Source: Amoebophrya sp. A120
Lineage: Eukaryota > Protista > Dinoflagellata
Assembly: GCA_905178155.1 (NCBI GenBank)
Contig: CAJINV010000028.1
Location: 231,235 to 295,234, forward strand
Direction of reading: 5' to 3'
DNA length: 64,000 bases
The notes beneath the pieces were generated by a model. The model ran no database searches. It saw only the letters and a program-made list of their open reading frames with translations, and was not told the DNA's origin. Both the position numbers and the translations under genes were made by a program. This document shows positions 1,860 to 63,600 of this stretch, piece by piece (position 1 is the stretch's first letter; the number at the start of each line of letters is the position of its first letter).

Positions 1860-4800
1860 TCAACGGGAACCACGACCTACCTCGCTTACTGGGATGTTCA
1901 CGAACGTACTCTCGCGTCGTGGTCGTGTAGTCACTGTTCTTTTGTTTTCCTCCCGATCTCCTTGATGAACACCAGAGGGCATTTTCTTCTCATTGCCGGT
2001 GGCGGTGGTCGTGCTGGTCCCTACTGGAAGTTTGGACAGCTGCCCCCCGCTCATCTTGTTCTTCTCATTGCCGGTGTTTGTGCTGGCGGTCCCTACTGGA
2101 AGTTTGTCCTTATCAACTGCAAAAAAGTCTGGTGTTTTGTCTGGAAACAAGACCTTGGTACAGCACAGGGAAGAGAACGACTTGAACTTTTTGAAGAAAG
2201 AAAATAAAAGTATGCACTATGTAGAGAGAGATTAAACATGCTAATATGTCCACCGGTGGAACTAACTATTACTACTTATACTACTGGAACTTTGCTCGAC
2301 TTGTCATCCAGGTTTTCCATGACCCATATGATCTGTAATGGACGACTTAGCATGACAGATCCCGTGAGATGATCACTAGCATGCCTATCCTGCATGAGAA
2401 ATTGCCTCTCAACTTGATCAAAAGCGGACATCATTTCTTGGTAATCATGCAACACAAATTTTTCCTTTTGCGTAATTCAGATTTAGTGCGACAAGTTCCA
2501 ACCTTCCAGACATCCAGGGATTTTTGCAGGGCATAGTCCTCCTTTTTCTCCATTTTCCTGTATTTTATGGCGTCCTCAAACATTTGCTTGCTCCGCTGTT
2601 GTATCCTGTGCAAAAGTATTGTATTGTATTCGTATTGCAATCATGCGTTACAAATCTTTTTCTTCAGGCACATTTGCATTTTACAACTTTCCTTTCTCAT
2701 GCCCAGAAAATTTGTCATGCGAGTACGATACTTTTGCAGTTCATATGTTGTTCCATGAATTTGTAAGGCGATAGAGTCCTCGCCATCAATAGTACTGTCG
2801 ACCACCACATGATCCACATCAAGCTGTGTTTCGCATGATATTAAGCTCAACATAAGTATTCATGGACGAACAGCTGAGAATGTAAAAACGTTTGAGGACA
2901 ATCCCATAAACATGCTGTTGTCGTTGAACCGCATGTATAATGGGTCATCGTAGGAGGAAGACCCAGAATTGGAATCATTTTCCTCTTTCTGGTAGTTTAT
3001 TCCGCAGTAGTTGATTCCGATCTTCAGTTCCGGATCCGGCGAAGATAACCGCATCAAATGTAAAAATGTCTGCGTCTGGAAGAGTGCGCGATTTATTGTC
3101 ACGCAGCTTTTCCATGACCCATGAGGTCTGGAATGCAGGACCTAGCATGACAGATTCTGTGCGATGATCTCTCTCTGCCTATCCTGCATGAGAAACTCCC
3201 TCGCGACTTGGTCAAAACTGGACGAGGACGTCACTTTTGGTAATCATGCAACACAGATTTTTGCATACTTCAGACTTAGCATGACAGGTTGCATTCTTCC
3301 AGACCCAGACATTTTTACATTTGATAAACGGAGCCTTTGACTTGTTTCTAGGCGACGACGACAAGGGTCTGGCATTTTTGGCACTGGATTTAAAGCCTAT
3401 CGTACGAAAAAAGTGTACCTTCACTGTAAGGATTTTGCAAGTTTTGCATCACAAGTTTGTTCTGCATGACGGACGAGAAAATTTGCCATGCGAGATCTCC
3501 AAGGGAAAACACCACGAAAATTCCATTGTCTTGCATGTGTAGCAAGACAAGCGCGTCCTCTGAGATAGATTTTCTGCATTACAAGTAGTTTTTTAATACA
3601 GTGAAACAGTTTTTTTTCTTGCGATAGAGCCGTCTTCATCGTCCTCGGAGTCCTCGTCATCCTCGGAGTCGGAGGTATCCTGTGCAAAAGTATCGTAATC
3701 GTACAAATGCAACTCTTGCATTACAAATCTTGTTTCCAAGGCAAATCTGCATATACAAATTTTATTTCTCATGCTGAGGAAATTTATATATGCATTTATA
3801 CGAGTACGATACTGTTGCAAGGCATAGGAGGAAGTAGATGACGATGAGCTTCCCTCCGAAGAATTGCCGTACCGCTGAAAGCTCGGGCCCGAGCGATCTT
3901 TGGAAAAAGGATGCTTGAATCGGTATTTGAGCGGTTCCCCCCATCTCGCATGGGCTTTCTTGCGGTTCGCCTTTTCAGGGATCACTATCATTGGGTCGTC
4001 AGGATCCTCGCCTAGAACTCTTCTCTTCTTCCGCTTTTCCTATAGAGAGCAAGTGAGTGATGATCTTAGGGAGTGTTGCTACTTTCTCTTATCGAAAGTC
4101 GCAGCCTACTGTCATGCGGATTTGCTATCTCCTCCTGAAGATTTGTCATGCAAAGTAGAGCACACTGACACCAAAAGCCACTCCATTCCATGACCATGCG
4201 GTCTGGAGTGATTTTTGCTGGGCAGTTTGCATCAGAAAAAAACAAAAAGCTTTCTAGGCGAATCCGCAAGACAGGTTAACTTTTTTCTTGGGACTAGCAG
4301 CAGCCGGGAAGATGATCACTCATTTCCCCTCCTTAACTCCTTGAAGTAGAATGTGACCTCTGCATTGCAAAAGTATCGTATTCGTATAAATGCATTACAA
4401 ATTTTCCCAGCATGAGAAATAAAATTTGTAATGCGGATTTACCTTGAGAAAAAGATTTATGATGCATGACTGCAATACGAGTACGATACTTTTGCACAGG
4501 ATATGACCGGCACGTCGTAGAAACCTGAGCCAGCCTATCAAAGTGCACAGGTCCCCCTCGTCCCCCTCATCTGTCAGGCAATGAAATCCCAAATACAGTA
4601 ACCCTGCCCGTTGGCACTGTTTGCATGACAGATTCTGGAAAGAACCCAAACAGTACTACACGAGTTCCATAAATTTGTCACGCGTAGGCTCCATGCGTGC
4701 TTGTGTTTGTCTTGCTGTTTATGCCATAGTTCTACAAATGAGGGGAAAGGGTAGTTGTGCACTCTCATACAGTCGGCGTTAGACCGTCCACCACAGATTT

Positions 4801-7150
4801 GCGCTGGTGCAAGGAAAAGCGTTTGATCTTTTTACCGCTCTTCACTTTATTCGCGACGGTCCGCAGTTCGTTTGTACGCTCCTTCTCTTTTTCTTTGTTT
4901 AGCTTCATCCTCATTTGCAGTGTGAGAACGTCGTTCTGGCTCGGCGATTCATCCAGCTCCTTGGGGACATCCACGGAGACGATGCGGATCGGGTCCTCGT
5001 CGTCGTCTATAATGTCCGGCCTCGCCCCGTAGGTTCCTTATGCTGAGCAAAAACGTCCCCACCCCATAGTCAAGTTGGTAAATCTGCAGCACAAATCTCC
5101 AAGCTTTGGGAGTTGTGCATGACAAGTTTCCATCTACAGTGTTGTGCTGCTTAGCAAGGGAAGCCGCATGAGAAAGCTATTTTCTCATGCTGTTTACATC
5201 AGCATTACAAATGCCAAAACACGATTGGAAATGCCTCTCATGGAGATGCGCATTGCAGATGCTCCTGTCATTGCGCATTTGCATGACAACTCTGGGCTGG
5301 GGACGATTTTACACAGGATATTCCTTCGTCCTTCGTCATCAATAGCTTTGACCCGGCGTTGTTCAAACAGCAGTGGTATGCATTGCAAAAGTATCGTACT
5401 CGTATAAATGCATTACAAATTTCCTCAGCATGAGAAATAAAACTTGTAATAGTATATGCGGATTTACCTTAAGAGCAAGATTTGTATATGCAAGACTTGC
5501 ACTTATACGAGTACGATACTTTTGTACAGGATAAGTCGTCATTCAAATCAAGTCTATGCTCCCGGACCAGCCCCGGAACGTCCTCGCACTGGTTTTTCCA
5601 GATGTGCTATCAACTGCAAAAATGTCTGGGTCTGGGGGATTCCGAGTTTTGTCATGCAGTTTTTCCAAGCTCCCCCACGTCTGGAATGCAGGGCCTAGCA
5701 TCACAGGTTCTGCAGCTCCTTGGTGATGCGTGTTCTGCATGAGAAACGCCCTCTCAGCATGGTGAGGAGTGGGCACCGAGAAATGCCCTCTTTGCACGTT
5801 GGTTATGCATCACAGATCTTTGTATGATCCGAAACACGCTTCACAAGTTCGGATCCTTCCAGACCCAGACATATTGGCATTTGATACGTGCTTGCAGGAA
5901 TTATCAAAAGTGCCGAGACGGAGAATGTTGCCCCCGTTGCAGAACACGATTTTCGCCCCTGCTAGGGCAAGAGGTGTCGTTCCTTTTTCCCACAGCGCCT
6001 GCCAAGTTTATCCTGTGTAAAAACGGCCCCACGAGGAACCCAGATTTAAAATGGGATTTCTGCAACACAAGCCTCAAGGCTATGGGATGCACACATGATA
6101 AAATGCGGTCGATATTGTAGTGCAGGTTAGCAAAAGGAAAAGCAAGGACGCCCGCATTTACAAATCCATCTGCTCATGCTGTTTACAGTATTACAAATTC
6201 TAAATTATTCAAAACACAATTGAAAATAGCTAGCATGCCGATGCGCATCACACATCTTCAGTTCCTCTTCCTGTGGTCATTGCAAATCTCGATTACAACT
6301 CCCGGTCGGGACCTTTTTTAGACATGATAAGGTAGTGTTCGAACACATCTGGTATAAGTCATTCATATGCATTGCAAAAGTATCGTACTAGTAGAACTCG
6401 CATGGCAAATTTCTCCAGCATGAGAAAAATAAAATGAAATTTGTAAATGCAGATTTATCTCGAGGAGTAGATTTGTATATGCATGATTGCCGTTACTACG
6501 AGTACGATAGTACTTTTGCAATGCATAATTCATGATCCGAATCTTTTCCACGGTCGACACTCTGGATTTCGTGTATCCTTCGGAAAAACATCCCCATCCC
6601 ATAGTTTTGTGTGATGTCATAGAGGTCTGCATGCTCAAAATGTCTCATCTCATGCGGACTTTCCAGTGCTAGTTGGAAATTTGTGATGCTCGAATCAGCA
6701 CGAGAACCTAGATTTGTCATGCTGCTCCCGTAGCTGAACGGGAATTCATTGCGAGCGGAAAGAACTCGTGGTGCGCAACAGAAGCAAACTTAATATCCTG
6801 TGCAAAAGTATGGCACTCCCCCTTGTAGTAATTCTAATTGCAATCACGCATTACAAGTCTTGTTCTTCAGGTAAATCCCCATTTCCGAACGAGGCTTTTG
6901 CAAAAATGCATAAAACTAACACGACCTTAGTTGTTTGTCTTGCAGATTTCCCAACTTGACGTATGGGAAGATGATGGGGACGTTTTCATACAGGATATCT
7001 TCTTTTTCTTCATCGCATTCTGATTCTTGCTATCCGCATCTCCATCAGCATCTTGATCCTCCTCAACGTCAGTCGCTGCGATGCTCATGTCCGATTTCGC
7101 GGCACCTGAAGTGGCAAGCGTTGGTTGAAAAATGTTGCCTGCAGAAGAGA
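1860..7150 (-). CDS. Hypothetical low-complexity protein gene split by 14 introners (5' end approximate; probable extra conventional intron near 2780-2950)
   Basis: Removing element+5 nt links ORF-track fragments in frame: KKKKSRVSTVEKIRIMNDLYQMCSNTTWQALWEKG...GTYGARPDIIDDDEDPIRIVSVDVPKE...SSDSEDDEDSEDDEDGSKSSAK...KKEDKLPVGTAS, to stop at 1860. Confidence 0.8.
2111..2535. mobile_element. Introner family A, degenerate, with ~150-bp internal insertion
   Basis: TATCAACTGCAAAAAAGTCTGG...TCCAGGGATTTTTGCAGGGCATA; TSD gtcct/gtcct; interior homologous to 3052-3326. Confidence 0.8.
2602..2745. mobile_element. Introner family D
   Basis: TATCCTGTGCAAAAGTAT...ATACTTTTGCAGTTCATA; TSD tgttg/tgttg. Confidence 0.9.
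3052..3326. mobile_element. Introner family A
   Basis: CATCAAATGTAAAAATGTCTGCGTCTGGAA...TTCCAGACCCAGACATTTTTACATTTGATA; TSD aaccg/aacgg. Confidence 0.9.
3398..3626. mobile_element. Introner family E
   Basis: TATCGTACGAAAAAAGTG...TTTTTTTCTTGCGATA; TSD aagcc/gagcc; frame restored. Confidence 0.85.
3676..3826. mobile_element. Introner family D
   Basis: TATCCTGTGCAAAAGTATCGTA...TACGATACTGTTGCAAGGCATA; TSD ggagg/ggagg. Confidence 0.9.
4041..4335. mobile_element. Introner family F (degenerate, single copy)
   Basis: Imperfect TIR TATAGAGAGCAAGTGAGTGATGATCT...AGATGATCACTCATTTCCCCTCCTTA; TSD tttcc/actcc; internal TGTCATGC motifs. Confidence 0.6.
4359..4503. mobile_element. Introner family D
   Basis: TCTGCATTGCAAAAGTATCGTA...TACGATACTTTTGCACAGGATA; TSD tgacc/tgacc. 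Confidence 0.9.
4536..4769. mobile_element. Introner family G
   Basis: TATCAAAGTGCACAG...GTTGTGCACTCTCATA; TSD cagcc/cagtc. Confidence 0.85.
5039..5320. mobile_element. Introner family B
   Basis: TATGCTGAGCAAAAACGTCCCCAC...GGGGACGATTTTACACAGGATA; TSD ttcct/ttcct. Confidence 0.9.
5377..5533. mobile_element. Introner family D
   Basis: TATGCATTGCAAAAGTATCGTA...TACGATACTTTTGTACAGGATA; TSD agtgg/agtcg. Confidence 0.9.
5608..5886. mobile_element. Introner family A
   Basis: Family A TIRs at both ends; TSD tgtgc/cgtgc. Confidence 0.9.
6009..6329. mobile_element. Introner family B (degenerate)
   Basis: TATCCTGTGTAAAAACGGCCCC...GGGACCTTTTTTAGACATGATA; TSD aagtt/aggta; frame restored. Confidence 0.8.
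6366..6527. mobile_element. Introner family D
   Basis: TATGCATTGCAAAAGTA...TACTTTTGCAATGCATA; TSD attca/attca. Confidence 0.9.
6574..6997. mobile_element. Introner family B (degenerate) containing a nested family D copy
   Basis: TATCCTTCGGAAAAACATCCCC...GGGGACGTTTTCATACAGGATA; TSD tcgtg/tcttc; frame restored. Confidence 0.8.
6794..6912. mobile_element. Nested degenerate family D introner
   Basis: TATCCTGTGCAAAAGTAT...CTTTTGCAAAAATGCATA inside 6574-6997; flanks only partly duplicated. Confidence 0.6.
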
Positions 7151-7297
7151 TTCATCTTCTTGGATCGATGAATTTGAGTCCTCGTTGGTTACTTACTAGT
7201 ACACATTTCAATTTTGATTTTTATTCGAGCCACGTTACTATAATCATGTGCAGCTCCACCTTTTATTCTTTCCACACCAATAAAAAAACTACGGAAT

Positions 7298-10200
7298 TAA
7301 ACTACGAGAACAAATCGAACACATAAGTAGTAAACGTCGCTGTAAGCAGTACCCGCTTTTTGCAGCTTCTTCTTGCCTTTTTTGTTAGACGCAGCAGGAC
7401 CAGACAGGAGGTTTCCAAACGCTTGTGCCGCAGGTAAAGACGCAGGACCAGCGCTGGGAGGAGGAACAACCTGGGTGTCGTGTAGTTGTGAAAGAATAGG
7501 TACGAATAGAGCATTTGATGATCAGGTTGCGCAACTAGAGCATCTGTACGGTTTTTGAAATTTTTCTTTTGTTCGCACACAAAAAACACTCTTCATTCCA
7601 AATTCAAATGACAGAAGAAAATAAAAAAGTACTACTTTTGCCTTCGAGGAGCTGCTGCTGGCACCTCCGGTTGTACCGCTTGGCGCTGCCAGCTTAGAGC
7701 TGCTGCTTGAGCTAGCTGCGGAGCTACTCGCTGCTGCTGGAGCGACTAGCGGAGGAGGAACAACCTGGGTGTCGTGTCGTTGTAACTGTATACGAATAGA
7801 TAAATACGAATGCAAGCATTTCATCAGGTGGGGCAACTAGAACATCAGCACGCCTTTGAAATTCTTTCTATTGCTATACAGAAAACGACGTATGCCTATG
7901 CGTAATTATATGGTCATGGTGGAATCTATAATTTTTGTCTGAGAAAACAACATCTTCTGGACCGATGTACCTAGATAATTGGATTGGGATTTCTTCTCGT
8001 CTGCTCGCTCACAAAGATAAATCGCTTATACTAGTAAGCTTGTTCGGCATTACGACCGAGAAAATCATATTCATTTCAAGAAGCCAAAGAAAGCTGCAGG
8101 ATAGCATACAGATGTAGAATTGGCCTTGAAGATCTGCTCGTATTTCTCCGTTTTGATTTTTCCGCTGCGGAGTAGAAGTTCTGTACAGCTCATGCTCCTG
8201 GGGACATCGCAGTGCCAATCTATATATTTTTACATTTATTCGCATCATGAATCTCGCGTGCTCCGTAAAAAGAACCTTTCTATGTTCTATTCAAGTGACG
8301 AAAAATACCACCTTCGCCAGCTTCGAACTGCTGCTGGCAGCTCCGGTTGTACCGCTTGCGTTATCTGCTGCTCTCTGAGCTAGTTGCGCCCGGAGCTGCG
8401 CCGCCAGTTGAGCGGTGACGCTTGGCCTACTCCCTGCATTATATCCACTGGAACAACTATGTCTGGGTCTAGAAATAAACTGAGGATCTTTATTCTCATG
8501 CAAATTGTACATGATGACCGCCTTTGATGTTGCATACATGCTCTAGCATCTTCACAGCTTTCATCGCGAAGCAAGTTTGCTGAGGCTAATGCCTATGACC
8601 CTGCATCAGAAATGACGTCTCTGGGTGGCTCGAACCTGGGTACTTTTTGCTGCTCATGCAACGCAGGTTTTTGTATGGTCGAAAATTAGGATCACACACA
8701 AGTCCCACTCTTTCCAGACCCAGACATATTTACAATACATAATGCAGCCACTGGCCCAAGAAAATTCGAAGTTTCCGCAGCCGATCCGGACCCGTGGCCT
8801 GTGCCAGCTGCAGCTTCGGCGCTTGTACCTGTGAATGGTAGTTCATCACCGCGATCAGTAGCCCGAAGTTGATGATGGTGATGTTCTGTCTGCTCACTGT
8901 AGTTTTCAAACTTATTCACCAGTGTTGCTGTTAGGAGCGTGAAGATCCCTTTAGCATTCTTTCAAATTTTGGATGTGGACGCTCATCCCGTTTTATCATT
9001 ATACTATAAACCGCAAGGACGTGGCCCAACATGGGAAGATCTTCCCGCCCCCACGGTGGAATGGAATGAACTTGAATCGATGAGGATTTCAAACACAAGA
9101 AATAAAAATTCAAAAAAAAAGAAGGGCGGTATTAAAGTAAGTAGCCAGACGGGGGTAACATGCTATTTGTTCTTGAACAATGCCAAAACTCCTTACACTT
9201 ACCGTTGTCTTTGTTCAAGTAAAATGAAGTCCTCGAAAACGCGGGGGCACCGTTCGCATCTTCACCTTCCTTACCGTCAATATTTTTCTTTTTCTTCTTC
9301 TTTTTCTTGACCACTAGATCCGTCGCCGCCATAGAAGAAGTTTGCTTGACCACTAGATCCGTCGCCACGTTCATCTCCTCCGCGTTCTTGTCGTCATCGT
9401 GGGGCGGGGGTCCAGTCGCGCTGGTATTCTTTATAAGCAGTGCAGAAGATGATGCCTTGTTCTCCTCACGTCCTTGCAGGAGTTCCGGTTCATCCTCGTC
9501 GTCCAGAACGTCCTTGTTCAGCAGGACATAAGGTTCTTTCTGTTTTTCCAGCAGGGTAGCATCTTCACGCCGGCGGCGCTTTGTCGGGTCGGAATCGGCG
9601 ACGGTGTCCTCGTTGTTCGCGCGTTTCTGTTTCTTGTTCGTCGTATTGACTTGTTCTGTTTGGGTCGCGCTGAGAAGAGCCCCCTCCGACTTCGCTTTCT
9701 GATGCTGCTTCTGCTTGGCCTGGTGATCCGGGTATTTCTCCTGCACGACCGCCGCGCCGGGCGCCGGAGGAACCGCCGTGCTGCCGTTGCCCCCCAATTT
9801 CTTCGACGATTTTGGTTTTTTCGCCGTGCCGGTAGTTTTGCCCACCGCAACCGCGGTGCTGTCATTGCCCGAAGATTCTAACGGTTTTGTTGTAACGGTG
9901 GAGCTAGCAACTTTATTATTCTGTGCAGTTGTACTTGAAGACGCACTTGGTCCACCACTTTGGCGATTATTTTGACTGACGTCGGCATTTTGTTCCTGAT
10001 TCGGTTTTTGCTTTTGCTGCTCTTTGCTGAGACTCACGCCATTTTGTTCCTGATTCTGGCCACCTCGCTTTTGCTGCAGCTCTTTGAGCGTTTTTATCTC
10101 TTTACGGGCGTCCTCCAGCTCCTGTTCAAAATGTTCTCGAAGCTCCTTCATCTGCAGATCTTTCTCCTTGCACGCTTTCTCGGCAAGCATCTTCTCGTGC

Positions 10201-13103
10201 TTTGCCTTTTCTGCCTCAGCCTTCTCGTGTTGGCTCATTGCGGTCGCGTCTTTCACGTCCACCCTCATTGTCTCCCGGTGCTTTTGCGCAAGTTATAACC
10301 CGCTCAGGTGTTTTTACAATCTCAAACGTTACAATAGAAAGCGGGATTTGTCTTGTATCATGAGCATGACAGACTCGCCGACCGCGCCACTTTCTGCAAT
10401 ACAAATTTCGCCAGATTGTAGTGCGGTTTGGGACTCCGGAACTTGTCATGCGCAGTCCTATGAAATTGGCTAGATCATGCATTCCTTGCATCACAGATTT
10501 CCAGATTCTATTGTAACGCTTGAGATTGTAACTCTTGAGCAGGTCATACGAGTTCCAGGTCTTTTTTCAACGCTTTCTCATTTTTGGCTCTCTTTGTCAT
10601 CTATCAATTGCAAATATGTCTGGGTTTGGAAACTTGTGATGCGAAAATGTGGATGATGGAAACGATTCCGATCGCAGCCCAGCATGAGAACTTTCCAGAA
10701 CGCTTTCTCGTAGGAAGGCCGCATGAGAAACTGCGTTCTCGCATGACAAAAGAGGCTGGGACTTATTTTTTTGTTGGTTATGCAATACAGATTTCCTGGG
10801 AATGAAAAGCTAGCATTACAAGTTCCAATTTTCCAGACCCAGACATATTTGCAATGCATATGAGCTCCTGTAAATCGATCTCCCTGGACTTCTTCAAGGT
10901 TGCTACCTCTTCTTCCGCTGCCTCTTTTGCCGCTTTCTCTGTTTCTGCCTTCTCCTATCCTATGTAAAAAAGGGGCCTACAGCATCCCATACTTGTCATG
11001 CAGATTTCGATTTTGTATCTACACCTACAGAAAGATCTGTTAATATGCGCATCCGCATGCGCATCCGCATGTGGTCGTCGTTTATTTCTGGGAAGATTTG
11101 TATGTGGACAGGATACGTAAGCAAGCGTCTTTGTGATCATGCGGCTGTCCTTGCTAAAAAAAAAGCTCCACTACAGATGGAGGCTTGTCAGGCACAACTA
11201 CTGCCAAAACTTGGAGATTTGTTTTACAGATTTACCGATTTGAGTATGGGATCCAGACGTTTTTCCATATGATATCTTCTCCAATTTCTGGTGCTTTTTC
11301 CTGTCCTTGGCTATCTTCTCGTTCTGCAAGAGACTCACCGCCACAATGTCCTCTATTGGGATCTCAAGCGTTACATTCTCAACTGTGACACGAATATGAA
11401 TTTGTGATGCAGGAGCAACAACAGTGAAAAGCCGTGGCAATATAGCTTTCTCTTGCAATTCTCGCATCACGAAATTGGCACAGGTTTCGATGCTGCTTCG
11501 TCCTTCGAAAATTTGTCATGCGGGGTTATAACTTGATCGAGTGGAGGCGCGTGGCCGTGGCGGCTCGGGCTTTTGCATTTTCTCATGGTGCTGTTGCATG
11601 ACAAAACATGTAAAAACCGTTGAGAATGTCTATCGTTTGAGAGCAGTCCCATAGCCTCCATCATGTTCTTGTGGATTTCCGTCAAGAACAAAAATGCCTG
11701 CTGTCTCCGCGGAAGGTTTTTCAATCGTGGGTTGTCTTCGCCTTCGGTATGAACTCCAAAAGTATCGTACTAGTAGTAATTGCAATACAAATTAGCTCAG
11801 CATGACAAATTGAATTTGTCATGCTGTTTTGCCTTGGGATAGAGACTTGTAATGCATGACTGCGATTACTACGGGTACGATACTTTTGCACAGGATATCC
11901 GGGGGGCGGCGACGGGGACCCATCATCTTCTTGTTCCGATTCGTCCAGCTTCTATCAAGGTGCACATCAACTTTCCCTCGTTCATGATCTCCGGTTCTTT
12001 GTAATGCAAAATGACACTAAAAAATATAGTGAACTACGTACTCCATCGATTGCTTCTACTTGCCACTTCTACTATAATCCATGACAGGTTCATCATCCCC
12101 CCGAGGAAGCCAGCTAGGAACTACAGTAGTACAAATATATTCATTCTTGGTTCAACCAAGAATGAATATATTTATTGCCATGCAAAGGCTCCTCCTGTAT
12201 CATTTTGTTTGCTAGCACTCGTGGGTGCTGCTGTGCTCGATGCAATTATCCATGAGATCACCAGGAGGGGGAGTGGTTGTGCACTCTGATAGTACCTGAT
12301 CCGGCGCCGAGAACATGAACTTGTATCGAAAGGAAAAATCCCCCCTCCCCATATCGAAAACGAAATTTGTGATGCTGTATTTGAGGTCACAAATCGACTC
12401 GTCATGCTAGAAGGCCAAGAGCCGCAGTCGTGGCCTCGTTTGCAGGCAATTTGTCATGCTGTTTCCCACTCTCAGCTGCCTCCTATCATGCTGAAGATGC
12501 AAGGCTTCCCCACGCCACCTAGCACTACAGTCCGCATCTTTTCCTGTGTAGCATGACAAAGCTGATTTGTGACAACAAATCTGCATCACAGATTTCCGTT
12601 TTGATATGGGGAGGGGGGATTTTTCCTTTTGATAACTTGTGCCGGAGTGTTATTGGAAGATTAGGTCCTGGTCCGAGAAAACCGTTTTGCGACGTGTCAA
12701 ATGCAAATATGCCTGTCGTGTCTGGAAGAATGCTGCATGGATTTTTTGTCATGCACGCAGAAGCATCACAGGAGACACAGATTTTGCGAGATAAAATAAA
12801 AATAAAATCCTTCTTGATGCTATATAATCCTGATCCCGCATGTTGAGAATATTACCGCCGCCTCTACTTCTTGGATAGGAACAAGAAGGTCGGGGCATCG
12901 GCTTTTCATCCCATCCGGATAAAACTTACAACAAAAGTTTTTTTTGTGAAGGAGGCTGAAGTAGCATGACCCCAAGCTGCATGCATCCTTCCAGACCCAA
13001 AGTAGATGTTTTGCAATGCATACCCCAAGGCGGTCCGCACCTTGTTCAGGGCGTCGGCGAGGCCCATATCGTTGTCAACGCTGCCTCCACCTGATCCCGG
13101 CAT
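7298..13103 (-). CDS. Hypothetical coiled-coil/low-complexity protein gene with 9 introners and several GT-AG introns (ends approximate)
   Basis: Joined frame MPGSGGGSVDND...ALGQNGFLGPGPNLPITLRHKFMFSAPDQ..DESEQEDD...RQQAFLFLTEIHKNMMEAIVAVSLLQNEK...LEKKAETEK...ELAQKHRETM runs into the 378-aa ORF 9132-10268; repeated DTQVVPPP/SGTTG..SSSSK exons at 7300-8440. Confidence 0.8.
8442..8741. mobile_element. Introner family A
   Basis: TATCCACTGG..TGTCTGGGTCTAGAA...TTCCAGACCCAGACATATTTACAATACATA; flanks diverged, +5 removal in frame. Confidence 0.8.
10294..10548. mobile_element. Introner family I
   Basis: Long TIR TTACAATCTCAAACGTTACAATAGAA / TTCTATTGTAACGCTTGAGATTGTAA; TSD caagt/cgagt. Confidence 0.85.
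10602..10860. mobile_element. Introner family A
   Basis: Family A TIRs; TSD tcatc/tgagc; frame restored. Confidence 0.9.
10956..11274. mobile_element. Introner family B-like (degenerate)
   Basis: TATCCTATGTAAAAAAG...CGTTTTTCCATATGATA; TSD tctcc/tcttc. Confidence 0.75.
11354..11653. mobile_element. Introner family J
   Basis: Subterminal CATTCTCAAC / GTTGAGAATG; TSD tcctc/gcctc; related to 18157-18762. Confidence 0.8.
11748..11897. mobile_element. Introner family D
   Basis: TATGAACTCCAAAAGTATCGTA...TACGATACTTTTGCACAGGATA; TSD ttcgg/tccgg. Confidence 0.9.
11953..12291. mobile_element. Introner family G (degenerate)
   Basis: TATCAAGGTGCACA...TTGTGCACTCTGATA; flanks gcttc/gtacc; frame restored. 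Confidence 0.8.
12324..12634. mobile_element. Introner family C
   Basis: TATCGAAAGGAAAAATCCCCCCTCCCCATATC...GATATGGGGAGGGGGGATTTTTCCTTTTGATA; TSD acttg/acttg. Confidence 0.95.
12695..13022. mobile_element. Introner family A (degenerate)
   Basis: TGTCAAATGCAAATATG..TCTGGAAG...CTTCCAGACCC..TTTTGCAATGCATA; flanks diverged, +5 removal in frame. Confidence 0.75.
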
Positions 13104-13259
13104 GGCTGTTGTAGTATTCTTGCCGAAGCCGGAGCCGATCTCAAAGTACGAATACGATCGCGATCGACGTCGTTGTACAACACAATAAAACTTTGGTTAC
13201 AGTGGTTCTACTTTCCGGGGAAAAATGAAGTTTCCCCAGAAGAAGTGTGGAGTAGGTGG

Positions 13260-13495
13260 GGGTACCACCGCAAACCCGTTTTCCGCCTTATTTACCAGGC
13301 CACCGCAAACTACGCGTTTTCCGCTTTGGGGCCCGTGATTCGGCGGTGTGTCGTCGGTGTATCGCTTGATAGGTCGCTTGATGATGGGTCGCTTGATAAG
13401 TAGATCGCTTGATGGGTCGTTCGTAGGTCAGTCGCTGGTGGATCGATTGGTCGTCGGTCGCTGGGGAGGGGGGTCGCTAATCAGTGGGTCGGTCA
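13260..13495 (+). repeat. Short degenerate tandem repeats upstream of gene
   Basis: ccaccgcaaa...cgttttccgc x2, then multiple (g)gtcgcttgat units. Confidence 0.55.
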
Positions 13496-37118: not shown

Positions 37119-37297
37119 TCGTCTACAGAAACTTCAGCTGAAAAGAAAATGCAAAATCTTTCACGTGCGTTGCAGCTCAAGGCCGCTCGCAGCTTGTCAC
37201 GCAACGAATAGAAAATCATGTGTAGCAACTACGCGGCCAAGTAAAACTTGCGGGGGCGCCGCCCCGTTTTTGCGTTTGACTTTGCCCGCCATGGCCC

Positions 37298-46700: not shown

Positions 46701-47645
46701 AATGAGCTTCTGGTCTACGTCAATTAGAAAAGATCATATATTATGTGTGTCGCTTGTATAAAGGTAAAAGGTGTCTTGTCGTTATACTTATAGTTGTGTC
46801 GTCTCTTCGCTATAGTTGTACCAGTCGAAATTATGGCAAACGGTTCTGCAAGTAGCAGTCGCAATAATTCTTGAGGCACAACTTACACTTACAGTCTGAG
46901 AGCACTCAATTTATTATGTTATCTTCGAAGCGTCGATGTAGATGTACGAACGAAAAGTTAACGTAGTTACTAGTAGCTGTCTTCCATCGTGATACTTTCG
47001 CTTTTCCTTTTCCTAATCTTGATATAGTAGCGTCATTACGAAAAGTTGATACAATGTCGCTTGTCTACTAGCTCGCGTTCTACTTCACTTGCGGACAAAA
47101 AACCGCAAAAATGTGGATCGTATTCGCTGGTTCCCGCCGACCAGACGCTTTTCCAAAAAGCTCCAATGGTGACATCATACCCCATGTGAGGGATTTGTGT
47201 GAGACACTTCTTCATCAAAAACAGCTTGCCTGGTTCGGAACTTGTCTGCGGTGCGGAACAGCAAGAAAGCGGAACAAAACGCAACTACATCCCTCACGAT
47301 CCTTCTATCAGCGGAACAAAAAACAGCATCCTTTCTGAAAACGAGAAACTGCTGTGATCTTCTATCTTTACCGTCTTCTCTTCATCTCAAAAACAAACCG
47401 AATAGTAGAACAGTCACTGATCATCATGATCCACGAACTCGCACTGACAAACGTGCGCGCATAAGGGAAGGACCTTCGAACATCTGACAGCAGGATCAGG
47501 TGCGTAGCTGTTGCTCGCCTGAAGCAGCAGTTGCAGCGATTGTTCGTCGACTTTTCTTTCTTCTTCGAATGGGTACTTACTTCTTGTTACTAGACACATC
47601 CTTCTATACGAGCGGTTTGCGTAACGATAATTTAGTTTTGAATGG
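45410..47645. repeat. Segmental tandem duplication (~45410-46355 vs ~46560-47645)
   Basis: Shared blocks cgcaaaaatgtggatcgt.ttcgc.ggttcccgccgac, gagacacttcttcatcaaaa, aggtgcgtagctgttgctcgcct. Confidence 0.85.
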
Positions 47646-48065
47646 GTTTTCTTGAAGGGTTGCTTGCCACAGTGAAAGAATACACTGTCATTTTCAACAA
47701 CAGCTGGTAGTGCATAAATCGATGCTCATTCTCTTCACACACGAGCTTCTGCGCAGCGTTGTAGTGCAACAGTAGCATTTTACTTGTTTCGTCCGGCCCT
47801 TTTTACGTACACCTAGTCTGTTTCGCGTTTCCCGCTGCTACGGCAACCGCTTTAGCTGTTGTCACGAAGACGTAGGTCACGCGTCCATACCGACGTGGTT
47901 CATGATCTTCAACATCAACTTCATGTTTTCGGTCTTTCAATAACTTCTTTTCTTATGCGGCAAGGAAAAGTCGCTTGTGCTGTCTTCATCAGGAGGAAGT
48001 GGAAACTGAAACACCAGTCGAGAACGAGAAGTTGAACTTCGACAGTAGACCCAGAACAATCAGCT

Positions 48066-51032: not shown

Positions 51033-52701
51033 CTTCCCTGCGTTTGCGACGAGGCTGCGAAGAGGCAGTCGTAAACGGAACTGCGACAGAAGAATTCAAC
51101 CGACGGAATGCGACTTTCCAGTGGTTTGGAGATGTTGATGTTGCCGGAGTAGCGTTGCCAATTTGAAGTTCCTTCGCACACGAGAGCGACTTTCTTCTTC
51201 CTTGAAGCGACGATTGCTACCCTGAAGAATCCGGCACGCAGAGCCGACCCTAAAATTTTGTGTTGATCCAAACAGCTATGCAGATGTACAGTATGCTGAG
51301 CACGAAAAAACCATCTCTGCTATGCAAGACATCCAAATCCAACGATCAAGGGCTGACTGTGACTTGTAAAAATACTAGTGTGAACGTCAGGAACCAACCA
51401 GCTATACGTATAGATACTTACCGTTAATCTGCCTGCACGAGCACACGAGCTTCGATAAGCTTCTGGTGCGAGAGGTCCTCCGCCTTGAAGTCCACACGAT
51501 TCTGGTAGTAACTGCGAGCGGTGAAAAAGAAACTCCGTCGTCGGCTGCAGGTGCAGCCGCAAGTAATCGCGCGTGCTTTCTGCGTAAAACTTGGACCAAC
51601 TCCGGCTGTGCCTTCGTAGCACGCCGGCGCTGCTGGCTTCCCTTCCGAAGTTGGTGCTGCGAAAACGCGACGGCAACGCGAGGTTATCGCCCCGGTGGTG
51701 GTGACGATCAGGGTCACGAGAATACCCCTCCAAGGTCGATAATCCTTTCCTCACATTTGAAATTCCGCACCAATAAGTCAGGTGGTCTGCATGTGATGTC
51801 GAGTCGGAGGTCTTTCAATAATTATGTGATGTCAAGAACGAGAAGGAATTTTGAAAATATTTTGTCGTGTATGATGAGCCAGATGATCATTTTTCATCTG
51901 AGTATTCATTGTGTTCATCACAAATAATAATCAAAACACACAGGAGACTAAACAGCGCGTGCAGCAGCAACGCAATGGGACCCAGAGCATCTTGATCCGG
52001 ATCTTTCTTCCTGTGAGGGAGCTCGTGACAGATCGTGAGATCGTGACAGGAAGCGAACGCTGCGGCGAGTAGTACTATGTATACACTTGTCCGTGACCTC
52101 CACCGAGATCTCTACTTATCTTGTCCAGATCTATGGTCTTGAAAACTACGTATACACCTGTCACACTCTAGTACGTGATCCGGGCTTTGAATGGGAAAGA
52201 AGACGATCGCTAGACCAGCAACATCACTTGACAACATCAACAATTTCATCGAAAAATTGGATCTTTCTGGCAATGTCACAACAACATGAAAAATCACCTT
52301 GCGCTTCGCACCGACAGACTTATGCGGACTCAATCTGTTGCTGTGTTGATACGTATGATTGAATCATGCTGACAGGCACGAAAGTAATGGGAAATTCCTC
52401 GCGCCAGTTTTTATATTTGTGAACCTGAAGAACGCGAAGATTGATACATCTTCGTACTTAGCTTCCAAACTAAACAGCGAGCCTGCACCGTCTCGGAAAA
52501 TTTTCTCCTGTGCCATCGCGTGACAAAGAGAGGGGGTCGTCAAGTGTAGTGGTTAGACAGTGTTACGCGTTGAAGATAAAGATATTGAATGAGTATACTA
52601 TTTTAGTTCCAGTCAGGATCGCTCGGTTCATTTTTTCCATTGGTAAAGAATGAAAGAGTCATCAAAAATGGATCTTTTCTTTCAAAAACACGGCTCTCTT
52701 C

Positions 52702-55644
52702 TCAGTCAGAAAGACCGGCTGCGCGACGGATGACCCGCTGAGCCTTTTTCGCCAACTCCTTCTGGTGCTTCGTGGGTTTCTTGGCGTACTGTTTGATCAC
52801 GAGCTTCTGCTGGCGGTTCGGAATCGACACCGCAATTTTCTTGCCGGACGCGGACATGAGAGGCCACAGGCCAAAGAGTTCTTCCAACGGAGGCGCAGTG
52901 AGGCTCTTGTCGAGGGGCTGAAGATTTGGTCCGCCCTGGGTTATCAAATGTAAAAATGTCTGGGTCTGGAAGAGGAGAAGTTTGTCATGCACATTTTCCA
53001 TGATCCATGATGTCTGTGATGTATGCCATAGCATTACAGATCTTTTGAGCGCCTATCGATGCGCATCCTGCATGACAAATGCCCTGTCCGCGTAGCCAAA
53101 TTTGACTCCTCTTGCTGCTCATGCAATACAGATTTTTTTAGCATCCAAATGCAGCATCACAAGTTTGGCTCTTCCAGACCCAGAAATATTTGCATTTGAT
53201 ATGGGTGGCCGCCACATCAGTGGAACGCAGGTAGTGGTGCGCCTCCACGGTCTGGTATCTCTTGGTCACCTTTCAAACGAAAAAATGTCTGGGTCTGGAA
53301 GAATGCATGTTTGTCATGCTCGTCTGGCGTGACTCTTAAATCTGTCATGCACGTTACCCAAGAGCTCCATTTTTCTGTGATGCAGAAACGCAGTTTGTCA
53401 TGCAGAATAGGCAACACCTAGAAGCTCAGAAACTTGTCATGCTGAGTCAGCACTTGTGGCCCCATCATGAGACGCCACCCAGCATCACAAGTTTCATCCA
53501 GACCCAGACATTCTTACATTTGATATCACCTTGCCCAACTTTTTGTTCGTCCTGATCTGGTCCACAATGTCCGCCATATGAAGTGTAAAAATGTCTGGGT
53601 CTGGAAGAATGCAACTTGTGATGCGCATTTCAGAACACACAAAAATCTCTCATGCATAGGTAGCAAAAGCTGCGCACTTTCTGTCACCAAAATGGGGGAT
53701 TTGTCATGCGGGTTCGGCATTGCGGAAGCTTCTCGAAACCTGTGATGCTAGAGCTTCCATGACAGACCTTCTGTGTCATGCAGAAACAGCATGACTCTTC
53801 CAGACCCAGACATTTTTACAGTTGATACGCCAAGCGCGGGCGCGAATGCTGCGGCTGGCCGACACACTCGGAAATCCAGTCTCGCCAGAACTTGGGCATC
53901 CGTATCAAGTGTAAAAATGTCTGGGTCTGGAAACTTGTGATGCTGGGTGGCGTCTCATGATGAGGCCACAAATGCTGGCTCAGCATGACAAGTTCCTCAG
54001 CTTCTAGGTGTTGCCTAATCTGCATGACAAACTGCGTTTCTGCATCACAGAAAAGTGGAGCTCTTGGGTAACGTGCATGAGAGATTTGAGGCTCATGGCA
54101 GACAAGCATGACAAAGATGCACTCTTCCAGACCCAGTCATTTTTGCACTTGATAATCCGCTGGAGGTGCGGAAACCCGGTCCCCACGGCTTTGTCAATCG
54201 ACGTGCGGAAGGCAGTCAAGTGGTGCTGCGTCACGTGTTGGGTGTCAATGTTCTCGACGTAGCGGTCCCACTTGTAGCCCAGGGCGCCTTCCCGCTTACA
54301 GTCGACGGCGTGCCAAATCTGCGCGAGAATCATGCCGACCGCAAACACGTCGTTCTTGATGGTGTCGAAGGTCGGACCTCCGGGAGAGAGAAGCGTCTCC
54401 CACGTTTTATCACAAGAAAAAAGTGTTACAGGTACACACTTGTTGGAGTTTCTGCATCACAAACTTTCGCTGTGTGGCAGGGAAACCTTGTAATGCGAAG
54501 ATCATGAGGGAAAACAGGAAGGAAACGAGGCTCCCAAGCATTTCCTGCATGAGAAAGGTTATCTGTGTTGCCGGTCTTGCAACAAAATGTTTAACTGTAA
54601 GACTTTTTTCTTGCGATACATTTCCGGGCTTCCGTAGTACAACGTGCCGGCGGCACACTTCGAAGCTTTCGTGTTTTGCTTGCCCCAAGTTGCTATCCCT
54701 TGCAAATGTGTCTGCGTCTGGAATGTTGCCGGGTTTGTCATGCATGTTTTGCATGGCCGAGGATGTCTGTAATGCACGACCTAGCATCACAGATCTTTAG
54801 AGGGCTTCCTGATGCCGACTCCGCATGACAAATGCCCTCCCCGCGTAGCACAAACTAGACTCCTCTTGCTGGTCATGCAATACAGACTTTTTTAGAGTCC
54901 AAAGTCAGCATCACAAGTTCCAACCCTCCAGACCCAGACATTTTTGCATTTGATAGTTGCGCATCCCCAGTCGACCAGTTTTAAATGCCTGGATCTGCTC
55001 TCGACCAGGATGTTCTCCGGTTTCAAGTCCCCGTGCGAAATACCGTGCTGCTTATGCAACAAGGCCACACTCTCCACTAATTCACAGCTCCACTGCATCG
55101 CCATGTCCACCGGCATGTACTCCTCGTCGACTTCGAGCCACTTCTCGAGAGTCTTTCCCTCTACCGTATCAATTCTCAACCCAACTGTGACTTTCGCGAG
55201 CTGAGACGCCGCAGTCTTGATCGCATTGTTCTCTTCGTCCTCTTCGGGCGGCACCGGTAGCACAGGCTGCTCGTCCGCTTTTTTGGAAGAGGATGCCGCA
55301 CCGGACATCAGTGCGGAGTCATCCGTAGAGATGTTGCGCGCCTCCATGTCGTCGTGGTCTTCAGTGTCGGCCTTTGGCACTGGGGCAGCAGCGGATTTCT
55401 TCATCACTTTCTTTAGCGGCGGAGGGACCTCCTCCGCGGCCGCACCTTCGATCAAGGCAGAGGACAAGGGGGCAATCAAGTCGATCACGTCCGGCTGCGC
55501 GCTCAGGTACTCCAAAACCACCCGCTCTACGTACGCGTGTGCGCGGTGTGGCAGGCTCGTGAGCAGGTCTGCCGCGCGGTAGAACTTCCATCCGCCCTTT
55601 CTCTCCGTGGTGAAAGTCGCGAATGCGCCCTTTTTCGCTGACAT
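52702..55644 (-). CDS. Ser/Thr protein kinase (divergent) with 6 introners
   Basis: KKGAFATF..WKFY..VERVVLEYL..HGDLKPENILV..LKLVDWGCATW..AGTLYYGSPEMW..NDVFAVGMILAQI..WISECVGQPQHSRP; continuous only after removing six elements +5 nt each. Confidence 0.92.
52942..53201. mobile_element. Introner family A
   Basis: A TIRs; TSD tgggt/tgggt. Confidence 0.95.
53271..53525. mobile_element. Introner family A
   Basis: A TIRs; TSD tcacc/tcacc. Confidence 0.95.
53577..53827. mobile_element. Introner family A
   Basis: A TIRs; TSD cgcca/cgcca. Confidence 0.95.
53903..54154. mobile_element. Introner family A (inverted near-copy of 53271-53525)
   Basis: A TIRs; TSD atccg/atccg. Confidence 0.95.
54408..54618. 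mobile_element. Introner family E
   Basis: TATCACAAGAAAAAAGT...ACTTTTTTCTTGCGATA; TSD cgttt/cattt. Confidence 0.9.
54694..54955. mobile_element. Introner family A
   Basis: A TIRs; TSD gttgc/gttgc; interrupts the kinase activation segment. Confidence 0.95.
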
Positions 55645-60649: not shown

Positions 60650-63600
60650 ATATGCCATAAAGGGGCAGCGTACACTGTGCAAAAAATATTGTTCATGGCG
60701 GTCGCGGTACGACGAGCTTCCCGGACTAGAATAACTGTTCGAGGGGGGTCGCGCACTGCACTTTCTTACCGTTTCACACCGGTGCCGACTGGCTTCTTTT
60801 CGTCTTGTTCGACGAGCCATTTCTTATTGGCGGCTCGCGATTTCACAACCTGTTTTACTTATGTGCAATGCGAGTTGTAATCTGTGCGCAGCTGCATTGC
60901 GCGGCGCCAGTGCATATTCACTGCAACTATGTCTGGGTCTGGAAGAGCGCAGTTCTGTAATGCTTGTCTCGCATGAGTCTTGAAAATTTAATACGTGAGC
61001 ATCTTGTCTGTCATGCAACCACGCAGTTTGTCATGCGGAGAACGAAACACAAAGGAGCTCAGATACTTCTCAAGCATGGCAGTGTACTGCAGTCGCGCGC
61101 CCACCATTCACACACTAGCATCACAACTTTCCAGATCAAAACATATTTGCAATGCATGGTGCAATGAATGCGTGCCGCGTCAAACCAAATTAATACACAA
61201 CAAAGTCGCCGCGAAGTAATTTCATCAACGTCATCATTATCATCATCTTTGTGTTTATTGTCCTAGTCCTTGAAATTGTATTGTAAAGTTGTGGTCTTTT
61301 CTCATCTTTTTCTGACTGGCACTGGACGTACATTCGCAGAGATAAAAAAACGCCAAGAAGCCAAAGAGCGGCGCAAAGCCAAAAAGTACTCTGAGCATCG
61401 CCTGTAGATGGCCATCCGGACGGTGGCTGATGTCTGGTTTGCGGTCCTCCTTCACGTCGACTGGCAACCGGCCCTCCCGTTCCCTTTTTTGGTCCAGCAG
61501 GAGAGCGTCCCTTTTAGCATATCAAATGCAAATATGTCTGATTCTGGAAGGTTCTGAGACTTGTCACGCACGTTTTGCATGAGCCATGTATGATGTCTGT
61601 GGTGCATGCCCTAACATCACAGATTTTTGAGGGATTCGCAAGCGCGATGTTTATTCTGCATGACAAATGCTATGCCCTCTCCGCGTAGCAAAAATTATCT
61701 GCCCTTTGCTGCTCATGCAGTACAGACTTTTTTGGAATCCACAGGCAGCTGCAGCACCACAAGCTGCATTCTTCCAGACCCAGACATAGTTGCATTTCGT
61801 ATTGCGGTGGAGTAGACAATTCCGATGTCCAAGAGGAGGCGCTCCCGCGCTTCGATGCAGTTATGGAGTGCAAATATGTCTTGATCTGGAAGACTTGCGG
61901 TTTGTCATCCATGCACACTTTGCATCACCCGTGAATTGATTCTGTGATGCAGGTCCTAGCATCATAACTGTTTTTGCGGGCTTCTCGATGCCTATTACGC
62001 ATGAAAAATTCCCTCTCCGCGTAGCAAAAAGTACATTCCCTCTGCTGCTCATGCAATAGTACAGATTTCTTTCTCTTTGGAATCCAAGTGCAGCATTACA
62101 AGTTCTGTCTTCCAGAACCAGGCATATTTGCATTTGATAGCAGTCTCGGGTGTACGACGCCGCGGTGCCTGCCGCCGTTCGTTTATGCAACGAAAAAAGT
62201 GCTACAGTTACACACTTTGCTACAAGACATGTAAGACAGACGACCTCTGTCATGCGCAAAATGCTTGCGCGTCTCGTTTCGTGTGTGGTTTCCCTTGTGA
62301 TCTCTGCATGGCAAGTTTTCTCTTTCGTGATGCGAGGCAATTTTTTCTGCTGACTTCACTACAAGCGTGTAACTGTAGCACTTTTGTCCTTGGATATCGT
62401 TCGGCGTCGTGATAGTATTCGAGCGCCTCCGCGATGGCCGCCTTTTGATCCTTCACGACCAAACCCGTACACGGCATCGCACTGCAGTAGTGGTTAATAT
62501 TGATGATGATGTAATAGTAAAGCTCCAGAGGGGCGCCGCGCGCTTGTGCAGCTATCTGCCACGAGCCAATGCTGACTTCTGCTGCCCATGCACTTGCGCA
62601 AAACATTGCCACCCGAGGTTTCGAAACTGTGAAAACTCACCAAGAACGAAAAATGCGCCCAACCTAAAAAAATGGACTACTCTACTTCTATACCTAATCT
62701 GGAACGCCGAAGGAGCATGCGCCCCCAAAGTGCTCAGCGCTTCGGCCGCCGTGGGCCGTTTTCCGGGCGCACCATTTAAGGACGCCAGGACCACCTTCCG
62801 CATCCTCGACCCCGGTGCCTGGAGGATATCAAAAGGAAAAATCCCCCCTCCCCACATCGAAAAGGAAGTCTGTGATGCTGGATTTGCGTACACAAAACCA
62901 GCAGTTCGAGTATTGCAGTAGAGGACTGCACGCAAATCGCGAGCCTAGCTAGGCGCCTTTTAGTGTAGCCGCCTAGAATGGTAGTAGCCGGCTGCGTGCC
63001 CTGTCGTCCACCTTACAGCATTACAAATCGCCACCTGCATAACGTGGCGGACATCCTGCGTTTAGCTTCCTGCAAGACACGCGCGATTTGCGGTCACAAA
63101 TCTGCATCGAAAATCAATTTTGAGGCGTATGCGTTTTCAATATGGGAAGGGGGGATTTTTCCTTGCGATAGAGGAACTGGTTAATTTCCAACGCTTTCTC
63201 CCGTAGTTTATTCACTCGTTCTCCGGACCATCCCTTAACCTATACAGTGCAAATATGCCTGGGTGTGGAACGAAAACTGCAAGATTTGTCATGCTGGACA
63301 AGGATAGCTCGCAAGTTACTTACCCGTAGGCCACGCTTTGCTGCCATGCAGAAATGTTCTTAGTCATCATACTCCAGTAGATGCAACCGAGCTATTCGAA
63401 ACCTCGTCATGCTTGGCCGTCAATTGAGGCCTCCTCGTGATTGATCCATCAGTGTCGCGAGGAGGTTCCAGCTGCAGACATATTTGCATTGCATATGACG
63501 GCTAAATTATCCCGCGGCATGTTCGGGGACACGATCAACGCTTGCAGGGCGTTGGATTCCCGCTCAGCCTCCAGGAAGCGCATCGACCCCCACGCAGCGG

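Follow-up and report, generated by a model that had tools for sequence, protein, structure and literature searches.

The window analysed here comprises 64,000 nucleotides (nt) of contig CAJINV010000028.1 of the dinoflagellate Amoebophrya sp. A120 (GCA_905178155.1, positions 231,235 to 295,234 of the forward strand), and 28% of it is taken up by short non-coding elements with inverted-repeat ends, most of which interrupt protein-coding genes. Sixty-four such elements were catalogued between positions 2111 and 63495 (an initial annotation, made from the sequence alone, had counted about 63), ranging from 144 to 606 nt with a median of 276 and amounting to 17,758 nt. They are the introner elements of Farhat et al. 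2021 (PMC7789003), and the system was thus already known in the A120 genome: the relevant sections of that paper describe 29,850 repeated introns with RNA-seq support, about 240 nt long, able to form a hairpin and bounded by inverted repeats of the form TAT + 7 bases + AAA and by direct repeats of 3–5 nt. Two A120 proteins, P0001 and P0023, match the window at 100% identity, placing it in the same genome and bearing out the statement in the initial annotation that non-canonical introners are known in Amoebophrya.

The catalogue was built by seeded end searches, manual pairing and the mapping of P0001, and some counts below refer to 62 elements; an initial unbiased scan returned 135 pairs compared with 9–19 in three shuffles, a figure inflated by a 120-nt tandem array and not used as a statistic. 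The ends read TAY...RTA in 55 of the 64 elements (TAT...ATA in 48), so that the ends given in the initial annotation hold for most elements and fail for the remainder; by position, T, A and T at 1–3 and A at 11–13 are each present in 50–57 of 62 elements in either arm. Exact direct repeats cluster at one length alone, five base pairs (bp), with 30 of 62 elements, compared with two each for 3 and 4 bp and none for 6–9 bp. Counted as a 5-bp target-site duplication (TSD), the two copies are identical in 30 of the 64 elements and differ by one base in 13, by two in 10 and by three to five in 11, giving 43 with at most one mismatch; repeats that fall short of a perfect 5-bp TSD are decayed, and the initial description of them as 5-bp repeats, right as to length, was overstated for more than half of the elements. 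GT-AG ends are attainable in some register of the cut in only four of the 64, in keeping with the earlier claim that most lack them, and 11 of 62 fit when GC/GA-AG and AT-AC are also allowed; the TSDs AAAAA at 18157 and ACCCA at 52942 are as first reported and give no GT-AG. The estimate of about ten families was not confirmed as a number, BLAST sorting 62 elements into five multi-member groups (19, 14, 4, 2 and 2) and 21 singletons.

With terminal inverted repeats (TIRs), a TSD of constant length, no coding capacity and insertions in both orientations, the elements have the features of TIR DNA transposons, and are likely to be non-autonomous ones resembling MITEs (miniature inverted-repeat transposable elements). 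No candidate for a cognate transposase was seen, in that no element longer than 834 nt with these ends occurs in the window or in 160 loci of a second assembly, and the window holds no Rfam family match. An internal motif, TGTVATGC on either strand, occurs 147 times in the 17.8 kb of elements (in 57 of 64) compared with twice in the 46.2 kb outside them; it recurs in the second assembly (285 of 292 elements), often spaced 31–48 nt apart, and is common to families whose interiors are otherwise unrelated. It is likely, from this distribution, to be a transposase or splicing-factor site, and it was not found in 12 of the 23 passages of Farhat et al. that match a search for motifs. Two structural variants accompany the elements. 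Position 6794, inside the element at 6574–6997, is apparently the truncated end of another family's element, nested in the first. At 42476–43416 an exon and its element are contained in a 421-nt tandem duplication with a third partial copy that lacks the element; both duplicated elements have mismatched flanks and nonetheless give in-frame joins.

The second assembly consists of JACKZZ01 contigs, which could represent the same strain or a different one. The end pattern was found in 163 of its stretches (about 640 estimated) and had no match in viral contigs; members of the window's families recur in 160 loci (411 kb), with identities reaching 98%. Among 292 distinct elements there, the exact direct repeat is 5 bp in 234, 3 bp in six, 4 bp in one and 6–9 bp in none. 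Elements lie in both orientations relative to genes (36:25, 6:3, 16:11 and 15:12). The masked window gave no BLAST match to the 160 loci, and hence no empty-site counterpart, and a codon-likelihood test for the exonic repeat copy did not discriminate at 13 sites.

Removal of each element together with exactly 5 nt, as initially proposed, restores the reading frames of the host genes. Depending on the register, 53–56 of the 64 junctions then have at least 50 stop-free codons on both sides, compared with 12–20 of 64 for removal lengths that are not 2 mod 3. Of the eight shorter junctions, three belong to the KH gene and are limited by adjoining GT-AG introns, three have a shorter side of 29–48 codons, and the elements at 32799 and 60915 account for the last two, which lie outside any long open frame. 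When the frames of the two flanks were called independently, a removal of 2 mod 3 was needed in all 36 confident junctions of the window, every confidently oriented host frame (36 of 36) being on the minus strand, and in 76 of 82 confident cases in the second assembly. The frame alone cannot fix the value at 5, because removing 2 or 8 extra nt scores about as well (48–56 and 50–55 of 64 junctions, respectively). The length of 5 is instead given by the deposited proteins P0001, P0023 and P0024, in which 17 of 18 element junctions fit only this value when lengths from −2 to 11 are tried, and by one RNA contig. At the exception, 24169, the P0001 model removes the element minus 1 nt, while removal of the element plus 5 gives an aspartate that is also found in eight of eight aligned homologues; relative to these homologues, the P0001 junction at 24169–24494 is apparently misplaced by 6 nt. 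Seven of the ten element junctions in the KH gene align without gaps to an A120 paralogue, an orthologue from strain A25 and six more homologues, and two lie in variable regions.

The data support a removal that is precise and takes place in the RNA. Contig 3 of the run X1 is contiguous across 50397/50714, a skip of 316 nt (50398–50713) that equals the element of 311 nt plus 5; it additionally lacks the GT-AG intron at 51250–51421, and is therefore taken to be spliced RNA. Two more X1 contigs depart from the DNA at element borders, 52936 and 54955. In the run X5, which we take to be DNA, a contig at a depth of 41.8 crosses three elements, and a further eight contig ends fall within elements; X5 contigs contain the elements at single-copy depth, and X5 may be the source of the assembly itself. 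An element-plus-5 skip was seen in none of the 15 joints listed of 1,213. Because DNA-like contigs keep the elements and a spliced RNA contig skips one, elimination from the DNA is unlikely. Both results agree with the initial annotation, which had proposed precise excision and ranked DNA elimination as the less likely route. The X8 run (2026 RNA) contributed 124 reads, nearly all at 90–95% identity, that are uninformative on junctions; about 110 of them, from another genotype, pile up at 44682–44733 with a related element end on a different flank, so that an abundant RNA here carries the element in unspliced or retained form.

The position of the cut can be expressed as a register, the number of nt of the upstream repeat copy that are kept (0–5), and becomes readable where the two copies differ. 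The register is at most 4 at 4041 (a stop arises otherwise), at 24974 (an asparagine shared by P0001, P0002 and P0004) and at 37059 (P0023). Lower bounds come from other sites: a minimum of 3 at 28877, at 37503 and at 38633, where a lower value gives a stop, a minimum of 4 at 54408 (a methionine in P0024) and, judged by homologues, at 24169, and a minimum of 1 at 26759. A single fixed register of 4, the sole value fitting all of these bounds, would account for them. With this register introns would open with the base that immediately precedes the 5' arm and extend four bases past the 3' arm, which suggests the general form N-UAU...AUA-NNNN. Table S4 of Farhat et al. (PMC7789003) has T at +2 in nine of nine top A120 motifs, which fits register 4; it was not counted as evidence because the underlying models come from BLAT/EST2GENOME alignments and the families show GT and AG enrichment. 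Selection for GT-AG at register 4 was considered and rejected, the 10 of 254 cases in the second assembly being about what base composition predicts.

The terminal bases are conserved in a strand-asymmetric manner. In transcript sense, T1 and A2 of the 5' arm are present in all 62 elements that lie in open reading frames (ORFs) and T3 in 53, and in the 3' arm the third-position A is present in 62 of 62 and the second-position T in 58. Under register 4 these invariant bases would be +2U, +3A and −7A of the intron. The third-position skew came to notice in the window; in the second assembly (249 oriented elements with at most two TSD mismatches) it amounts to 6:1, and to 14:1 when combined (p = 0.001, tandem duplicate counted once); a local mutation bias is possible in the window, because all of its genes are on one strand. 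Pairing between the arms is predicted (z = −7.9 and −5.7), with a mean pairing above 0.5 at positions 11–20 in 47 of 64 elements, as the structure-guided excision first proposed would have it. Base identity seems to matter more than pairing, since a C opposite A is tolerated and G in place of A, which would leave a U.G wobble, is almost never seen; structure alone is probably not the signal, and to that extent the earlier proposal was incomplete. The idea that exons preferentially start with a purine was rejected: the window gives 8:0, the second assembly 1:3, and the two together 9:3 (p = 0.15).

Together with the positions of all elements, the host genes and transcript are collected in the table below. 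Both the KH and the kinase domains first read from the translations were found by Pfam. The KH-domain exon at 27409–27732 is 100% identical to P0001, 80% to an A120 paralogue and 72% to the A25 orthologue, and the exon at 37791–38300 is 100% identical to P0023. The RING finger first noted in the cysteine-rich ORF had no Pfam match when its two exons were searched separately. A protein search found no full-length relative of the 2863–7151 product, which is weak evidence. A recombinase domain is backed in the product of 16397–19451 (phrog_1 integrase, E = 4.4e-6; Atlas 0.97), which is possibly a domesticated or inactive recombinase, its catalytic motifs appearing altered. Tyrosine recombinases normally make no TSD, and on this ground, together with the altered motif residues, the ORF was rejected as the mobiliser of the elements. 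Several features elsewhere in the window are free of elements: an ORF at 30820–31479 on the minus strand with two PC4 (p15) domains (E = 6e-32), a tandem array at 56437–57575 in which a 120-nt unit is repeated about 8.7 times (96% match), each unit containing a long imperfect palindrome, and, judged by eye, decayed duplicated gene segments at 45000–47700 and 14900–16700.

Table. Introner elements, host genes and transcript in the window, all on the minus strand. TSD, number of mismatches between the two 5-bp copies; register, nt of the upstream copy kept.
Feature	Position	Strand	TSD	Remarks
Introner element	2111..2535	-	perfect	
Introner element	2602..2745	-	perfect	
Introner element	3052..3326	-	1	
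Introner element	3398..3626	-	1	
Introner element	3676..3826	-	perfect	
Introner element	4041..4335	-	2	stop if all 5 nt of upstream copy kept (register ≤4)
Introner element	4359..4503	-	perfect	GT-AG possible
Introner element	4536..4769	-	1	
Introner element	5039..5320	-	perfect	
Introner element	5377..5533	-	1	
Introner element	5608..5886	-	1	
Introner element	6009..6329	-	2	
Introner element	6366..6527	-	perfect	
Introner element	6574..6997	-	2	further left end nested at 6794
Introner element	8442..8741	-	4	left end uncertain by 2 nt
Introner element	10294..10548	-	1	
Introner element	10602..10860	-	2	
Introner element	10956..11274	-	1	
Introner element	11354..11653	-	1	
Introner element	11748..11897	-	1	
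Introner element	11953..12291	-	3	GT-AG possible
Introner element	12324..12634	-	perfect	98% identical copy in second assembly (L033)
Introner element	12695..13022	-	3	
Introner element	17410..17700	-	3	
Introner element, longest (606 nt)	18157..18762	-	perfect	poly-A TSD; GT-AG in no register
Introner element	18906..19245	-	1	
Decayed element	21027..21233	-	5	unrelated flanks; ends less certain
Introner element in Cys-rich (RING-like) ORF	21407..21721	-	1	
Introner element, KH gene	24169..24494	-	2	register ≥4 by homologues; deposited model removes element minus 1
Introner element, KH gene	24548..24826	-	perfect	
Introner element, KH gene	24974..25189	-	3	register ≤4 (Asn in P0001, P0002, P0004)
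Introner element, KH gene	25769..26074	-	perfect	
Introner element, KH gene	26139..26361	-	perfect	
Introner element, KH gene	26759..27123	-	2	register ≥1
Introner element, KH gene	27738..27951	-	perfect	
Introner element, KH gene	27994..28202	-	perfect	
Introner element, KH gene	28390..28668	-	1	
Introner element, KH gene	28877..29325	-	4	register ≥3
Decayed element	32799..33186	-	3	outside long ORF
Introner element	37059..37355	-	2	register ≤4 (P0023)
Introner element	37503..37783	-	2	register ≥3 (P0023)
Element	38633..38907	-	5	unrelated flanks; stop at register <3
Introner element	40056..40335	-	perfect	
Introner element	40380..40636	-	perfect	
Introner element	41507..41707	-	perfect	
Introner element	41781..42059	-	perfect	
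Introner element	42106..42426	-	perfect	
Introner element	42581..42837	-	3	within 421-nt tandem duplication
Tandem duplicate of 42581 element	42996..43261	-		421-nt tandem duplication
Introner element	43609..43869	-	perfect	
Introner element	44465..44732	-	perfect	
Introner element	50403..50713	-	perfect	RNA contig skips 50398-50713 (element + 5)
Introner element, kinase gene	52942..53201	-	perfect	no GT-AG
Introner element, kinase gene	53271..53525	-	perfect	GT-AG possible
Introner element, kinase gene	53577..53827	-	perfect	
Introner element, kinase gene	53903..54154	-	perfect	91% inverted copy of 53271 element
Introner element, kinase gene	54408..54618	-	1	register ≥4 (Met in P0024)
Introner element, kinase gene	54694..54955	-	perfect	
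Element	60915..61158	-	perfect	outside long ORF
Introner element	61520..61801	-	2	
Introner element	61862..62139	-	perfect	
Introner element	62184..62396	-	perfect	
Introner element	62827..63170	-	perfect	
Introner element	63241..63495	-	2	GT-AG possible
Host ORF, 425 codons	2863..7151	-		12 junctions; after element removal
Host ORF, 587 codons	9135..13196	-		8 junctions; after removal
Host ORF, 601 codons	16397..19451	-		3 junctions; tyrosine-recombinase-like domain
Host ORF, 193 codons, Cys-rich	20937..22047	-		2 junctions; after removal
Multi-KH gene, P0001, 652 aa	23629..29509	-		10 elements and 4 GT-AG introns
Host ORF, 1022 codons	36399..40879	-		5 junctions; 3' part deposited as P0023
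Host ORF, 542 codons	40996..44236	-		6 junctions; after removal
Transcript, X1 contig 3 (3177 nt)	47563..51889	-		lacks element 50403 and GT-AG intron 51250-51421
Protein kinase gene, P0024, 473 aa	52705..55653	-		6 elements; deposited protein 100% identical
Host ORFs, 197 and 207 codons	61258..63784	-		5 junctions; after removal

These observations are best accommodated by hairpin-guided removal through an altered U2-type spliceosome, a reading to which we assign a probability of about 0.5. The two arms would fold the pre-mRNA into a hairpin that brings the intron ends together; the arm would provide two bases of a normal 5' splice site, +2U and +3A, leaving +1 free, and the invariant A at −7 would serve as the branch nucleotide, the 3' cut being measured by its distance from this A so that AG is not needed. 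Branch points fixed at −8 are found in Entamoeba invadens, Fritillaria offers the precedent of non-canonical introns derived from TIR elements being processed by a modified spliceosome, and 83 of 89 spliceosomal proteins together with the U2, U4, U5 and U6 small nuclear RNAs (snRNAs) are reported for A120 in the passages on its spliceosome (PMC7789003). A stronger version is offered more tentatively: the terminal repeat could be a complete splicing code that a rewired spliceosome reads whichever way the element is inserted (a 5' end of N-U-A, a branch at −7A and a 3' cut four bases past the arm without AG), so that any insertion with a 5-bp duplication would be erased scarlessly at any exon site.

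Several points weigh against the spliceosomal reading and the fixed register on which it draws. The register is based on eight informative junctions, mostly via deposited gene models; the deposited model at 24169 (element minus 1) conflicts with register 4, and P0023 starts downstream of 38633, leaving this junction in no deposited protein. The register test in the second assembly, where few conserved domains are available, gave no stops in any register at 13 confident decayed sites, and at the locus L004:2123 the best local frame runs into a stop under register 4, but the gene there is on the other strand. The read-mapped stretch yields one complete RNA join among 19 element junctions (at least five X1 records); its repeat is perfect, so that no read shows the register, and the status of X1 as RNA is a software guess backed by the skipped GT-AG intron, none of the runs listed as containing this DNA being catalogued as RNA. 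The second-assembly skew taken alone is not significant (p = 0.125), and one of its 3' ends is GTA. The A that would act as branch nucleotide, which all 62 in-ORF elements have at the presumed −7, is paired in the predicted folds of about 40 of 64, and a U lies two bases before it in only about half of the elements, a poor branch consensus; the GT/GC donor and AG acceptor of U2-type introns are not what is found at the ends. In addition, the U1 snRNA is given as not found in A120 in the same passages of PMC7789003.

That U1 was not found also counts towards the rival that we take most seriously, while judging it clearly less probable than not: a dedicated, non-spliceosomal cut-and-join reaction guided by the stem, as proposed for Euglena, which would act at fixed distances from the hairpin base and release a circle, the conserved U-A and A being marks for protein recognition. 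Such a pathway would readily explain the lack of any GT or AG requirement (4 of 64), the independence of orientation (36:25 and 16:11, second assembly) and the strong hairpins, and the nonconventional introns of Euglena, in the accounts available, likewise combine a 5' spacer that is short (N3) with a longer one on the 3' side (N5-6) and are excised as circles. It sits less easily with a 5' end that appears to retain the canonical +2U and +3A, with a near-complete spliceosome and GT-AG introns in the same genes, and with the Euglena rule of a purine at the exon start, for which the counts are 8:0 (window) and 1:3 (second assembly). A further possibility, which we consider improbable, is that the element plus 5 nt is always removed but that the place of the cut inside the repeat varies between sites, the single register reflecting coincidence among few sites or the choices of aligners. 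Each site bounds the register on one side only, and the annotated A120 families, as far as the sources describe them, have mixed GT, AT, GC, GA and other donors; such mixtures would be expected if aligners place cuts inside perfect repeats, and the eight informative bounds meet at one value, two of them deriving from stops and two from homologue residues.

The remaining alternatives would dispense with splicing of the elements altogether. A hairpin between direct repeats is a known recipe for jumps by reverse transcriptase, and if the elements were unspliced, the joins in complementary DNA could be artefacts of this kind and the genes broken. That the sole complete RNA join has a perfect repeat suits this explanation, which is nevertheless very unlikely given a KH gene that is intact and conserved across ten elements, in-frame joins at sites with three to five repeat mismatches (24974, 28877 and 38633) and the outcome of the frame test (36 of 36). 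Still less credence is given to removal from the DNA in the manner of the internal eliminated sequences (IESs) of ciliates. The TA-bounded ends resemble those of Paramecium IESs, and with 15 of 1,213 joints listed, rare excised DNA is conceivable; IESs are absent from the expressed DNA, whereas X5 contigs contain the elements and run through three of them at a depth of 41.8 or end inside them, none of the 15 joints is an element-plus-5 skip, and the contig with the one observed join is missing a GT-AG intron as well. We know of no separate germline nucleus in Amoebophrya.

Set beside known systems, the elements show no difference in kind from the A120 introners in the sections of Farhat et al. 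cited above, sharing the genome, the TAT + 7 + AAA ends, the 3–5 nt repeat, non-canonical sites, removal from transcripts and dispersed copies; what is specified here is a uniform 5 bp, removal of the element plus 5, one register that fits and single bases conserved asymmetrically between strands. In that paper (PMC7789003) the legend of Fig. S19 mentions a 5-bp direct repeat, and the legend of Fig. 3 describes the splice position relative to the hairpin as variable or unknown. The A120 families of Gozashti et al. 2025 (PMC12130899) are likewise introners derived from TIR DNA transposons, with tens per gene; in 22 of the 58 A120 rows of its dataset the TSD is called at 2 to 5 or missing, as opposed to a uniform 5 here. 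Its family 38, as there described, has ORFs resembling long terminal repeat (LTR) integrases, and provides a lead towards an LTR-integrase-related mobiliser; no such long element was found here. In the literature covered, which leaves aside subscription papers, figures and 36 of the 58 A120 rows of the PMC12130899 dataset, no uniform 5-bp duplication, fixed register, strand-asymmetric +2U, +3A and −7A or internal motif was found for A120. Other Amoebophrya (Kv, AT5) have GT-AG introns.

In unrelated lineages, the nonconventional introns of Euglena (PMC12501133, PMC11282704) are described as MITE-like, with paired ends, no GT-AG and a short 5' and longer 3' spacer; their code, N3-CDG...CHG-N5-6 with R as the next base, differs from the N-UAU...AUA-N4 suggested for A120 and does not occur in it. 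Fritillaria borealis (PMC11282704, 10.1101/2025.08.15.670264) has transposon-derived introns with TIRs and TSDs throughout its genome, removed, according to the parts of these reports concerned with it, by an altered spliceosome; AG-AC/AG-AT ends dominate there, whereas no terminal dinucleotides dominate here. In the non-canonical introns of diplonemids, as portrayed in PMC12621601, extensive base pairing draws the ends close to each other and the spliceosome is retained.

To the known A120 introners the window adds a testable code, consisting of duplications uniformly 5 bp long, removal that leaves no scar, a single predicted register and three bases under conservation, the last of which fall where a 5' splice site and a branch point at a short fixed distance would be. 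The removal mechanism of tens of thousands of A120 introns is thereby reduced to specific alternatives, a lariat at −7A as opposed to a circle, and the element plus 5 at register 4 gives a straightforward guide for amending the gene models of A120. If the spliceosomal reading is true, relaxation of the requirement for +1G and for AG would let a transposon colonise exons freely, paralleling Euglena and Fritillaria.

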